From the NCBI RefSeq assembly GCF_006345805.1, contig NW_021835144.1, positions 1 to 42,361 of the forward strand: DNA of 42,361 nucleotides. Reading direction: 5' to 3'. A model generated the notes under the pieces. It was not told the origin of the DNA, did not search any database, and saw nothing but the letters and a program-made list of their open reading frames with translations. Below are positions 18,289 to 37,799 of this stretch, one piece after another (position 1 is the first letter of the stretch; each line of letters starts with the position of its first letter). Source of the stretch: Octopus sinensis. Lineage: Eukaryota. The position numbers were made by a program, and so were the translations under genes.

Positions 18289-18323
18289 GTTTTATGTTTC
18301 GAGCGGAGTTCTTCGTCAGAAAC
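18289..18323 (-). ncRNA. Decayed minimal hammerhead motif (extra-A type)
   Basis: Reverse complement: GTTT-CTGACGA-A-GAAC tcc GCTC-GAA-ACAT-A-AAAC; one mismatch in stem II and stem III one change from palindromic ACGT. Confidence 0.6.
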
Positions 18324-18484
18324 ATAGGAAAAAGAAAGATCCTGAGAAGGGAAGACGGAGGAAAAAAAATCGCCAACGTTACACACGCAGTCACATACAT
18401 ACATACATACATACATACATACATACATACATACATACATATATATATATATATATATATATATATATATATATTTGGATGACC

Positions 18485-18850
18485 GATAAATTTACAGACC
18501 TTTCACCACAAAATCAAAATGACATAGGTCATAGCCCCAAATAATTTGTCATTTGTATGAACATTTGTTGAGCACTTTGGTGGAAAAAATACCCTCTCTA
18601 AGACCAGTTGTGGCGTACCTTATGGAGTACGAATGACTTCCGATGTCCGAGTTCAGTCCATTCGTTCCTCTATTCGAAGCAGAAGATTCAGTCCTTTGCT
18701 GTTGTGATTTCCACCCTTTTTTCTTTCCTGTTGTTGTTTTCTTTCGTCTTTCACTGTGGTTTATTTTATAAGGTCTGGAGGGCATTGTTGGAGAGTTAAA
18801 GGGAAATGTGAAACTTAGAGTTGTGAGATTGTGGAACCTCAAATAAGAAT
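18485..18850 (-). pseudogene. Possible LINE ORF1 N-terminal remnant
   Basis: Complex sequence with a 97-aa basic ORF (18549-18842); only weak resemblance to LINE ORF1, no diagnostic motif. Confidence 0.25.
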
Positions 18851-18887
18851 TTTTAAAAATGAATGAATGAATTCAGCTTGAACTTAG

Positions 18888-19738
18888 ATCCTCTCTCTTG
18901 TTTTGTATATATAAATATATTCGACGCGCTTCTTTCAGTTTTCGTCTACCAAAGCCACTCACAAGGCATTGGTCGTTCCGAGGCTATAGTAGAAGACACT
19001 TGCCCAAGGTGACACGCAGTGGGTCTGAACCCAGAACCATGTGGTTGAGAAGCGAGCTTCTTACCACGCACCCACACCTGTATGTGGAGATGGTAAAAAA
19101 AAAGTCATGCCGACTCGCAAGGGCCGGCTTCCTCGTTACCATGGCGTATATATTCCGCACCTGAACGTATTTCTCTTTTGACTTTCACGTGTAAGAGTCC
19201 ACACACACCTACACACACACGCACGCATATGCATGTGTGTATGTGTGTGTGTGTGTGTGTGTGTGTGTAGACGCAGGCGTGGCTGTGTAGCAAGAAGCGT
19301 GGCTGTGTGGTAAGATTGTGGTTTCGATTGCTGAACCAGTCGAGATGTTCTGTTCTTGAGAGAAACACTTGGTTTTACGTTGCTTCCGCCCACTCGGCTG
19401 GCAAAAATAAGTAGCCCTCGGTCAGGTGCCGAATATATACGCCATGGTAACCGGGAAGCCGGCCCTTGCGAGTGACTTTTTTTACCATCTCCACATACAG
19501 GTGTGGCTGCGTGGTAAGAAGCTCGCTTCCCAACAACATGGTTCCGAGTTCAGTCCCACACTGCGTGTCACCTTTAGCAAGTGTCTTCTACTATAGCCTC
19601 GGAACGACCAATGCCTTGTGAGTGGCTTTGGTAGACGGAAACTGAAGAAGCCCGTCGAATATATATATATATATATATATATATATATTATATATATATA
19701 TATATAATATATACATATATACAAAACAAAGAGAGGAT
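18888..19738. repeat. Inverted duplication, arms 18888-19164 and 19422-19738
   Basis: Arms are reverse complements across a SINE B head, a second repeat fragment and outer flank (atcctctctcttgttttgtatat / atatacaaaacaaagagaggat). Confidence 0.9.
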
Positions 19739-20118
19739 GGAGACAAGATAAATAAAAGTTTATTATCATTGACAAGACCAGACTGTTTCAATTGTACCTT
19801 GATCGTGTGTGTGTGTGTGTGTGTGTGTGTGTGAGAGTGTGAATGTGTGTGTGTGTGTGTGTTGTGTGTGTCTGTTTGTCTGCTTGTCTGTTTGTCTGCC
19901 TGTCTGTCTGTCTGTGTGTCTGTATTTGTTATCCCCATCACTGCTTGACAACTGGTGCTAGTGTGCTTACGTCCCTGTAACTTAGCGGATAGGATAGGCA
20001 AAAGAGGCCGACAGAATAAGTACTTGGGTGAGGTCGATTTGCTCGACTAAAATCTTTCAAGGCGGTGCTCCAACATGGCCGCAGTCAGATGACTGAAACA
20101 AACAAAAGAACAAAAGAA
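19498..20118 (+). mobile_element. SINE family B-derived composite (head 19498-19660, tail ~19915-20118)
   Basis: Head and tail align to family B; the head is the right arm of the inverted duplication with 18888-19164. Confidence 0.75.
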
Positions 20119-20344
20119 TTCCGAGCGGGTCCTACTATAAGCGCGTGACCCACCTCTTCAAAAAAAATGAGGGCCCCAAACTACAAAATGTGCCTCAAGG
20201 CAACATTTTGCTCGCTGTAGAAGCTGCTTAGATTGTTTTCTGTCCAATACCGAACATTTTCCTTATTGACGAATGCAGACAGATGGCAGTGTATATATTT
20301 TTCTTTCTTTCTTCTTTTTCTTTCTTTCTTTCTTTTTTTTTTTG

Positions 20345-20520
20345 CTGTGAGGAGAACAGCATTGGCGGAAAGATTGTGAATGATATCCTCACAGTATACC
20401 ATGTGGTATTCCTGAACCACCGTCATTCTGCGTCGATGGAACTTGAGATCGCTGTATAAAATTTTCCTGGGGGTTTGATCTGACAATCCTAAACCATAAC
20501 TATATTTCTGGGTTGTACGT
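20345..20520 (-). pseudogene. Possible RTE-like LINE 3' remnant
   Basis: LSDQTPRKILYSDLKFHRRR resembles the RTE C-terminal motif MxxxRxPKxLLYGEL. Confidence 0.35.
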
Positions 20521-20720
20521 ATAACCCTTTAGAATTTAAACTGGACATATCCGGACCAAATGTTCTACCTGTCTTATGTTCAGAGCAACCAGATCTGGCC
20601 TCTCACACCCCGACCCTTAACTGTCATTCTAAAAATAAAACAATCCCATTGTCGAAATTTCGAAGCTGTGGTATTAATGCATGATTAATTGAAAACAATG
20701 AGAATAAATTATGAATATTA

Positions 20721-20885
20721 GGCGCAGGAGTGGCTGTGTGATAAGAGGCTTGCTTACCAGTCACATGGTTCCGAGTTCGGTCCCACTGCGTGGCACCTTG
20801 AGCAGGTGTCTTCTATTATAACCTCGGGCCGACCAAAGCCTTGTGAGATGATTTGGTAGGCGGAAACTGAAAGAAGCCGATCGTA
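20721..20885 (+). mobile_element. SINE family B 5' half
   Basis: ggcgcaggagtggctgtgtg..gaaactgaaagaagccgatcg. Confidence 0.8.
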
Positions 20886-35744: not shown

Positions 35745-36050
35745 ATGGTGGAGGAACTCTTGAGAGTCAACGGCCATCCAATAAATGTCTTAAGGCTGTA
35801 TCATGCGCGGGGTCATAGAAATAATCGGAATGAATACCCGATCGCGCGGTTAAACCATTGGGAGTGAAGGACTCCTAGCCTTTGTTAGGGCATCCTTCTA
35901 GGAGAAGGTAACTCAGGTAACTGGGATAACTCCGACATAAAACCTGTGGCTCAGTGGTTACTGATGATGTTGACTTGTTCTTCTTTTCGGATTATAGCTG
36001 CTGTTGCTTAGTGAGTGGGATTGACTCAGTGCACAGCCTTTCCTCACTTT
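35745..36050 (+). mobile_element. Possible RTE-type LINE 5' UTR-derived repeat
   Basis: ttagggcatccttctaggagaaggtaactc resembles a motif I recall from RTE 5' UTRs; no ORF follows. Confidence 0.3.
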
Positions 36051-37322
36051 AAAAATAATCTTCTTGCACAGGCATTGCACGATAGCAACATTGTTCGTGA
36101 TTGTTGGTGGTGCTGTGAGTCTCAACTGAATGGCTAGCTGTAGCCTTAAAAAGCAAATAAAAGTCACATTCGATCTCAGCACCAATAACAGTTAAGCTTC
36201 GTGCAATGGCCATACTCGATAACGAGGGAGCAGCCATCATATATATATATATATATATATATATATATATATATAAATGTTTAGCAGAAGCAATAAAGTG
36301 ACTCAAGGTGTGCCATTTAGCAGAGTGCCAACGCACGAAACTATTAGACCTTGAGTCACTCTGAAATACATGTACTCATAGTTTGAGTTCTATTTTTCCT
36401 GTTTGTATCAACGTGCCTATATATATACAGACAGACAAACAACCAGCCAGCTAGCCAGACAGACAGACAGGCAGACAGACAGACAGACAGATAGATAGAT
36501 AGATAGATAGATAGATAGATAGATAGATAGATAGATAGATAGATAGATAGATAGATAGATAGATGAAAGTTTAAGTCAGCCTTCCTTTTACATGTATACA
36601 CGTATATATATTTTGTACCTTTAAACCCAAGGTTTTTATTTGTTCATTTGAATAATTGTCTCCATATCTGCTTACTCGGCTTCCCCTAATGGCCACTCTT
36701 TACTCTCCTAACTTGATCTTCGGTGAAGACATCGGGGTGTAAGTTGAAATCATTTGAACGCTACTAAGTGTTTTCTATACTGTGACTCTCTCTCTCTCTC
36801 TCTCTCTCTCTCTCTCTCTCCTCTCTCTCTCTCTCTCTCTCCTCTCCCTAGGTACATACATAATACGTACATATATATATATATAAAAAATATATATATA
36901 ATATATATATATATATATATATATATTAAATATATATATATATAATATATATATATATATATATTAATAAATAAAACATATGCATATATATATAAACATA
37001 TATGTACGTACCTACCTCTACATGTATATATACACGCATATATGAGTACAGGACACCAAAAAAAAAAACGTCGAACACAATGAGAAACGAAAACATAGAC
37101 ACAAACCCAAGGAACTGGACATTTTTTTAAACAACAAAAAAATAGAGTACAGGACAATTAACACAAAGAGAAAACCCCTTCTTCAGTCGCCATGGTTTCA
37201 TCTACTCTATATATATATATACCAGAGCAAGCACATGAATGCGAAACAAGGTAGAAAAAATAGTAATCGAATGCGAGAGATAGAGTATTATGCTTTATTA
37301 AAAGGCAGCAAAAAATCAAAAG

Positions 37323-37362
37323 ACTGTTACTCAGAATTTCACGTTCCCGTTCGTCGGACAGT
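37323..37362 (-). ncRNA. Minimal hammerhead-like motif, C4 variant
   Basis: Reverse complement: ACTGT-CCGACGA-ACG ggaa CGT-GAA-ATTC t GAGT-A-ACAGT; three stems present, GUA site. Confidence 0.7.
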
Positions 37363-37383
37363 TTTGTTCAGATTCTAAACCAA

Positions 37384-37424
37384 ACTGCCCGACGAAGGGG
37401 AACGTGAAAGCCCTGAGTAACAGT
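37384..37424 (+). ncRNA. Decayed inverted copy of the C4-variant hammerhead-like motif
   Basis: actgc-CCGACGA-agg ggaa cgt-GAAA-gccctgagt-a-acagt; mismatches in all stems relative to 37323-37362. Confidence 0.5.
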
Positions 37425-37507
37425 TTTTTGTGATATTGTTGCTACTTTTTAATAAAGTGCCCCAGCATTGCCACAGCTCGAGAACTGAAACTAGATGAAA
37501 TATATAT

Positions 37508-37626
37508 ATCACCGTCACCGTGTTTGACCAGACTATCAGATGTTGCTACACATCGCTGGTCACAATGCGCTTCGCATTGTTTTTGCCTTCAAATGACGCC
37601 ACCCCGCTAGCTAAGAGAGCAGGCCA
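37508..37626 (+). repeat. ~115-bp interspersed repeat in (TA)n; second copy at 41385-41502
   Basis: gaccagac.atcagatgttgctacacatcgctggtcacaatgcg.ttcgcattgtttt.gccttc..gagcaggcc in both. Confidence 0.85.
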
Positions 37627-37736
37627 GATGATATATATATATATATATATATAATATATATATATATATATATATATATTATATATATATATTATATATA
37701 TATGTAAAATAATATGCGACAATTATTCAATAGCCA

Positions 37737-37799
37737 AGATAAAACTCTGAGTTTCGGATGCCGAAGTGGAAATCCACAACACCATCTCTTCGGTTATCT
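37737..37799 (-). ncRNA. Hammerhead-like motif, C4 variant with long stem II
   Basis: Reverse complement: AGATAA-CCGAAGA-GATG..GTGG attt CCAC..CATC c-GAA-ACTC a GAGT-T-TTATCT; 6-bp stem I, near-palindromic stem III, GUU site. Confidence 0.68.

Follow-up and report, generated by a model that had tools for sequence, protein, structure and literature searches.

Minimal hammerhead ribozyme motifs of seven repeat families within a calmodulin intron of Octopus sinensis

A calmodulin gene of Octopus sinensis is interrupted by a 21.9-kb intron (15974–37916, bounded by GT and AG) in which a first-pass annotation, made from the sequence alone, placed nine minimal hammerhead ribozyme motifs, and the locus poses the question of where such motifs come from and whether they have anything to do with the gene that harbours them. 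The intron makes up 52% of the window, which is the stretch of DNA analysed here and comprises one whole small contig (NW_021835144.1, or C11615; 42,361 nt) of the 2.72-Gb assembly GCF_006345805.1. We put a probability of roughly 0.9 on the following answer: the motifs are minimal hammerheads within seven short non-coding insertions, most likely the 5′-truncated 3′ ends of Penelope-like elements (PLEs) together with one retrozyme-like derivative, and the ribozyme would cut slowly, either as a dimer or with the help of a protein.

Nine motifs in seven repeat insertions

The nine motifs are genuine minimal type-I hammerhead folds. All nine of the positions originally proposed mark the left end of this layout, which runs in the order stem I, 7-nt core, stem II, GAA, palindrome, H17 and stem I′ (Table 1). 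A strict descriptor, demanding a stem I of at least four pairs and a perfect palindrome, recovered five of them and nothing else in the window, and it gave no match in any of 40 block-wise dinucleotide shuffles. With a relaxed descriptor, seven were found together with two weak matches (2475 on the plus strand and 31205 on the minus strand), whereas 100 shuffles gave 1.12 on average and never more than 4, so the density of hits lies above that of shuffled sequence, the comparison on which the first-pass annotation had staked its claim. The relaxed descriptor passes over two motifs, those at 18289 and 37384; both have been broken by point changes that set them apart from other, intact members of their families.

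The motifs had been assigned to several repeat families, and this holds; their number, however, reduces to seven insertions of seven genome-wide families (A to G), as those at 31695 and 32078, and likewise those at 37323 and 37384, are inverted copies lying inside a single insertion. Each motif recurs as a genome-wide repeat, with 40–80 scored matches per family search (the best 40 of 127–2,241 candidates being scored in each search), and all seven families have the type-I topology with both stems and with a palindrome spanning 15.1 to 16.1, the two window copies mentioned above being broken. Within 261 loci fetched from outside the window (871 kb), the strict descriptor found 125 distinct matches, compared with 1, 1 and 0 in three shuffles; the claim that stem sequences differ between families and nevertheless pair is borne out across these loci, which contain at least eight further hammerhead families with other stem sequences. 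In the flanks away from the anchors there are 30 strict matches in 544 kb, or 23 (one per 24 kb) after subtraction of seven that are tied to anchors, and a rough extrapolation, for which it should be borne in mind that repeat flanks may be repeat-rich, arrives at about 115,000 strict motifs genome-wide.

Could the motifs be chance matches in low-complexity DNA? The relaxed descriptor does produce about one chance match per window, and two of its nine matches look like chance. Nonetheless, the explanation has next to no probability, given that every motif recurs as a family, and it is ruled out by the strict-scan shuffles, by the shuffles of the fetched loci and by a pattern control for family B: the exact 27-letter pattern of this motif, which has U at position 6 (U6), occurs 13,318 times in the genome, and the reversed pattern not once. 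In a scan of the window against Rfam at E ≤ 1, with 150 of the 182 matches listed, none of those listed is a hammerhead family, and the top ones are microsatellite look-alikes of microRNA families; in a repeat search of the window microsatellites swamped everything except the arms of family A.

Penelope-like linkage and a retrozyme-like unit

The probable origin of three of the families is indicated by what lies upstream of their longer copies. An open reading frame (ORF) with a GIY-YIG domain is present upstream, on the same strand, of family B in 4 of 29 non-window loci, of family C in 4 of 19, and of family E in 5 of 30 loci retrieved through its upstream region. Intact ORFs containing both RVT_1 and GIY-YIG (775–780 aa) occur in the genome, and in 8 of 30 GIY-YIG loci a sense hammerhead of another family, with a U3-A8 core, follows 710–1,108 nt downstream. 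The attribution to PLEs or retrozymes that the first-pass annotation drew from established cases is thereby upheld, families B, C and E following such ORFs and family A being retrozyme-like, as described below.

Motifs in the encoded proteins point to particular PLE clades (10.1101/2021.04.23.441226). The family B ORF (translation of locus L231) has a CX2CxxC linker before its GIY-YIG domain, where the Neptune clade has CX2-5CxxC, and copies of family B end in (TA)n. The Hydra clade is marked by CxCX5C, DKT and a (TA)n target; the target of family E is (TA)n, and the best homolog of its ORF, a 713-aa protein (P0001; E = 8e-29), carries a reverse transcriptase (RT) signature, DKT and CxCX5C, although in two E copies the second cysteine of the linker is replaced by F (CxF-X5-C), and Pfam recognised nothing in the E ORF fragments at E ≤ 0.1. 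Judged by these marks, the family B motif at 23586–23621 would be the 3′ region of a Neptune-like element, and the family E motif at 37323–37362 that of a Hydra-clade-like one. Both clades are further described as having a C-terminal GIY-YIG domain, microsatellite targets, an inverted 5′-truncated copy and an optional tail of 30–60 nt; inverted 5′-truncated copies, optional tails and TA or TAA microsatellite targets are seen for families A, E and F, in the window and genome-wide.

The motifs also resemble the minimal hammerheads reported from the pseudo-long terminal repeats of metazoan PLEs (PMC4209133): they share the type-I layout, the short stem I and the palindrome in place of helix III, as well as the extra base between positions 9 and 10.1 (in B, C and G), the U3-A8 core (in A), pairs on opposite strands 100–700 bp apart, and the occurrence of many families per genome, mostly as single truncated copies. 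A Hydra example from that source combines a 9-nt palindrome with U-U at the base of stem II. The notion of a diverse and under-annotated ribozyme system is right as to its several families and needs tempering as to its novelty, since the architecture, U3-A8 core, extra base, odd palindromes, inverted opposite-strand pairs and tails are already known for PLEs. There are two differences, in that none of the 56 representatives in Fig. S3 of that study has U6 or C4, and the 13,318 exact copies of family B exceed its largest genome total of about 9,000; octopus is absent from the one supplement file of the study that was searched.

Family A has properties of its own. The plus strand of its insertion repeats at 361 nt (127 of 130 positions identical), and the unit, which is non-coding with 43.8% GC, has a circular minimum free energy of −122.9 kcal/mol, compared with −91.7 ± 5.5 kcal/mol in 100 shuffles (z = −5.6). 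Furthermore, 19 of 27 independent non-window loci cross the junction between the end and the start of the unit; among the 27, two are longer than a full period and a single one (L007) carries two hammerheads at a distance of 361 nt. Because of this circular permutation, the strong circular fold and the junction-crossing copies, family A appears to fit a non-coding circular or tandem template of the kind used by non-long terminal repeat (non-LTR) retrozymes (PMC7229834; 10.64898/2026.07.22.740005). With these it shares a non-coding unit of comparable length (theirs being 170–400 nt), GC below 45%, strong self-pairing, circular permutation, a type-I hammerhead and a Penelope-like tail. It departs from them in having a U3-A8 core and a 6-nt palindrome where they have the canonical motif, and in consisting mostly of dispersed sub-dimer copies, tandem hammerheads being confined to that single locus of the 27.

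A number of subsidiary observations concern this family. The two hammerheads of the tandem dimer (L007:1587–1948, minus strand) differ from each other in all three helices and the palindrome, which suggests template switching between subfamilies. Another small contig (G000:C12132; L002 and L008) has the same inverted structure with matching flanks, and is probably a second haplotype or a duplicate of the window locus. In contigs of all four sequencing runs considered, none of which is recorded as RNA, the palindrome ACATGT is replaced by ACTAGT as a compensated double change, and no core variant is listed; nor do these contigs have a listed pile-up of molecule ends or a joint at the cut site, although they are uninformative on expression and cleavage.

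One might extend the description of family A to all seven families, which would then be short circular-RNA elements, or non-LTR retrozymes, as opposed to truncated ends of coding elements. The unit length, base composition, fold, junction-crossing copies and double hammerhead of family A are all in keeping with this proposal. However, it is ruled out for B, C and E by their upstream continuation into GIY-YIG ORFs, and the alignments of G, F and D reveal no circular permutation, such that we consider it unlikely for the set as a whole and favour truncated PLE 3′ ends, with family A as a derivative.

On the preferred reading of the insertions as PLE 3′ ends, the RT and endonuclease of the element would prime in TA- or TAA-microsatellites, the RT would start at one of two sites, giving an optional tail (as is described for an anole element in PMC11167929), and an inverted copy would often be added at insertion. 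The template would mostly be uncut RNA, which would account for the whole hammerheads that most copies keep. In a few cases (L135, L065, L125 and L136) the 5′ end does lie at the cut site, but this handful was rejected as proof of cleavage. Cutting itself would involve the pairing of two palindromes into a helix III and would hence call for tandem or paired RNAs, or for an element protein; in published work, minimal hammerheads of PLEs show weak cutting when dimeric and none when monomeric (PMC4209133), and the hammerhead of the anole element is protein-assisted and dispensable for insertion in vitro (PMC11167929).

The ends and junctions of individual copies offer some further detail. At L135:1440–1530, a head-to-head chimera of families E and F has both copies starting at, or no more than 1 nt from, the predicted cleavage sites; as a single case, it hints at cut RNAs being copied. 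The 5′ ends of family E cluster about 8–17 nt before C3 at a pyrimidine-rich site (window 37357–37374; L122–L150), which we take to resemble an initiator, and family F copies often start just past an AG, 12–14 nt before C3, in a set that is biased by the query. We also considered whether family E is a fixed palindromic element with a double hammerhead, and rejected this: the junctions vary among 29 unbiased loci, and several copies extend upstream into an ORF.

Several points weigh against the reading as a whole. The Neptune and Hydra labels rest on motifs and not on a tree. Linkage to an ORF amounts to one weak locus for family G (L229) and to one rearranged, ambiguous locus for family F (L311), and for families A and D no link was found beyond neighbouring ORF pieces that are possibly unrelated: the candidate for A (L010/L312) is an ORF piece about 1 kb upstream with other repeats in between, and that for D (L187/L313) shows an RT piece on the opposite strand only. 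Fold prediction with short flanks makes stems I and II both likely in families A, C and F, but with 40-nt flanks it forms stem I in just three of the nine motifs; stem II is not formed in those at 18289, 37384 and 35084, the last of which also has a weakly paired stem I rich in G-U pairs. Covariation, which the first-pass annotation had proposed as a check, is seen in family D (19 sequences), though two of the five measures do not exceed shuffles. Pairing holds in 87.1% of cells (as high in 3 of 500 shuffles), 17 cells are changed on both sides where shuffles have 7.2 (none of 500 reaching 17), and the score of 0.340 is equalled in 1 of 500 shuffles and is far lower for slid structures; the two measures at shuffle level are the number of pairs with a two-sided change (reached in 52 of 500) and that of further pair types (in 166 of 500). 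The control ignores relatedness, moreover, and related sequences can exceed it without structure.

As an aside, the rearranged locus L311 (200–2800) contains a further hammerhead family, with a canonical core and the palindrome ACCGGT, that is joined within stem II to an inverted F copy, and this hammerhead junction adjoins a Hydra-like ORF.

Core variants in families B, E and F

It had been anticipated that non-standard cores would partly escape strict searches for CUGANGA, and six of the nine cores in the window indeed differ from this consensus. At the level of families, a CUGANGA or U3-A8 core is found in A, C, D and G: CUGANGA occurs in 10 of 11 family C sequences, the core is standard in 20 of 23 of family G (CCG in the remaining three), family A has TTG in 25 of 27 with A8 in all 27, and the alignment of family D has a CUGANGA-type core. 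Families B, E and F depart from it. In family E the core begins CCG in 15 of 26 sequences, CTG in six and CCA in four, and in family F it begins CCG in 14 of 16, the CTG and CCA minority being as CpG decay would give; the common state is thus a change of U4 to C (U4C). Natural hammerheads tolerate U3-A8, U4C (in a viroid), A6C (in a phage) and U-U at 10.1–11.1 (Perreault et al. 2011, PMC3088659), whereas A6U is named neither in section 8 of that paper nor in the text of 11 supplements, and a further source (PMC11662667) concerns twister ribozymes. In the literature consulted, no account of A6U or U4C in PLE hammerheads was found, although the supplements of Craig et al. (10.1101/2021.04.23.441226), with their Hydra-clade hammerheads, may bear on U4C; the U6 core of family B and the U4C core of E and F in PLE hammerheads are apparently unpublished. 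From their sequences, B, E and F would appear to be core variants that work like the PLE hammerhead family.

The U6 core is characteristic of family B throughout. Another base stands at position 6 in 474 matches, and the first 100 listed (68 C, 23 A and 9 G) are as expected from scattered mutation. In an unbiased set, collected through the 3′ flank alone, U6 is present in 22 of 22 readable non-anchor copies (two anchors, one G-type row, one truncated copy and two rows of one deleted copy being left out). A hidden canonical A6 subfamily was also considered and, in the sample, rejected: when 20 A6 copies were set beside 20 U6 copies, both kinds fell into the same subfamilies as defined by their flanks. 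A6 is over-represented in combination with G7 (8 of 23 listed A6 copies, compared with 12 of 100 U6 copies with G7), and there may be a small A6/G7 sublineage. Family G, a sister family of B, keeps A6.

Variation within the family B motif is narrowly placed. Positions 7 and 17 are the two free positions of the hammerhead. At position 7 the first 100 U6 matches have 51 T, 22 A, 15 C and 12 G, and the base tracks flank-defined subfamilies. Comparison of five subfamilies, grouped by hand, shows differences in 41 of 99 downstream columns and in none of the eight of stem I; inside the motif itself, variation is limited to positions 7 and 17, apart from position 6, by which the copies were sampled. 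In this set, 25 motif columns are fixed by the search pattern and only stem I and H17 are unbiased; position 17 is A or U, never G. This pattern of conservation suggests selection.

Family B is predicted to cut weakly or not at all, yet it has spread to more than 13,000 copies. An explanation that is compatible with a PLE origin, and to which we allow somewhat less than an even chance, is that its motif is a catalytically dead relic: U6 would have arisen once in a master element for which cutting was dispensable, the rest of the motif either persisting as a hairpin that has a structural role or binds protein, or being too young to have decayed. A deep scan found low activity for single mutants of the CUGA turn (PMC9901934), the natural A6C variant cuts at less than 0.1 per min (PMC3088659), hammerhead mutants leave insertion in vitro unaffected (PMC11167929), and Naiad elements spread without hammerheads (10.1101/2021.04.23.441226), all of which agree with such a relic; the constancy of stem I beside a much-changed downstream region, with variation at the free positions 7 and 17 only, does not. 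Conversely, family B, the most abundant hammerhead family seen in the genome, may be a natural A6U ribozyme under selection, assisted by dimer formation or a protein; together with U4C, this would mean that core changes are tolerated or serve as tuning, and that some 100,000 motifs are hidden from consensus searches. We regard this second possibility as doubtful, less probable than the relic, and leave what remains to a weak, incidental activity.

These variants bear on the question of why PLEs keep hammerheads at all, given that insertion in vitro survives mutation of the motif and that some clades do without it. Family B constitutes a natural experiment, in which a successful family has lost a near-invariant core base and kept everything but the two free positions, and family G, with its A6, provides the control: a comparison of cleavage between B and G would separate selection on cutting from selection on shape. 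Surveys based on CUGANGA miss the 13,318 exact copies of this one variant motif.

A regularity of a different sort was seen in the fetched loci, where the families with 4-nt palindromes all have an extra A after position 9 and, among the matches listed, those with palindromes of at least 6 nt are without it.

The calmodulin intron and other features of the window

Table 1. Features of the window, with the state of each hammerhead copy and its predicted cleavage position
Feature	Coordinates	Strand	Details
Calmodulin coding exon, EF-hands	15829..15973	+	Pfam EF-hand_1, E = 1e-12; GT donor at 15974; 15829 is where translation began, not a mapped exon start
Family G hammerhead	18289..18323	-	Core CUGACGA with extra A; 4-nt palindrome; stem II and palindrome broken; predicted cut after 18293
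Family B hammerhead	23586..23621	+	Core CUGUGGA (U6) with extra A; palindrome ACGU; predicted cut after 23617
Family C hammerhead	29791..29830	-	Canonical core with extra A; palindrome AUAU; stems I and II of 5 bp each; predicted cut after 29796
Family A insertion	31468..32292	.	One inverted copy together with 1.36 tandem units (361 nt each, circularly permuted; period 31804-32164); arms of 282 nt with 98% complementarity; flanked by (TTA)n and (TAT)n
Family A hammerhead	31695..31737	-	Stem I of 6 bp; U3-A8 core UUGAUAA; palindrome ACAUGU; predicted cut after 31701
Family A hammerhead, intact	32078..32120	+	Predicted cut after 32114
Family D hammerhead	35084..35131	+	Old family, about 70% identical; canonical core and 10-nt palindrome; stem II with U-U at its base, stem I decayed; predicted cut after 35125
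Family E insertion	37205..37457	.	Full minus copy 37205-37373 head to head with shorter plus copy 37374-37457
Family E hammerhead	37323..37362	-	Core CCGACGA (U4C); 3-bp stem II; 9-nt palindrome with unpaired centre; predicted cut after 37328
Family E hammerhead, broken	37384..37424	+	Damage to closing pair of stem I, stem II and palindrome
Family F hammerhead	37737..37799	-	Core CCGAAGA (U4C); long bulged stem II; 9-nt palindrome; predicted cut after 37743; inverted tail at about 37807-37870
Calmodulin coding exon, EF-hands	37917..38160	+	Pfam EF-hand_1, E = 6e-23; AG acceptor 37915-37916

The first-pass annotation had seen no motif outside the intron, and this is largely correct: beyond it, the window holds the weak match at 2475 (plus strand) and a family D fragment without a hammerhead (38365–38493). 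The confinement is nevertheless mild local clustering at most. That all seven insertions fall inside the intron has p = 0.010, with the intron chosen post hoc, and the four strict insertions there compare with 0.93 expected from the flank density (p = 0.015, the region again being post hoc); for the whole window, four strict insertions against 1.8 expected is not significant (p = 0.11).

It is on the first two of these figures that one might suppose the cluster to consist of intronic ribozymes adopted by the host for the regulation of calmodulin pre-mRNA. A role in calmodulin is unlikely, and in our estimation very improbable, because five of the nine motifs are antisense to the gene and the sole intact copy of canonical type on the sense strand, at 32078, lies within a 282-nt inverted repeat that would sequester it. 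Of the four sense motifs, one has U6 and two are decayed; the copies bear ordinary decay changes, and the excess over the whole window is not significant. The location in calmodulin thus looks incidental, and the hammerhead copies are likely to be passive within the intron.

The earlier of the two recognised calmodulin exons diverges at its start (15760–15830), and no tRNA genes were found in the window. Two decayed 3′ ends of an ORF like that of a long interspersed nuclear element are embedded in (TAA)n at 30030–31290 on the minus strand, and presumably resemble elements with a restriction-like endonuclease, of the R4/Dong type. Near the end of the window, at 41690–41960, a stretch of about 140 nt occurs twice in direct orientation.

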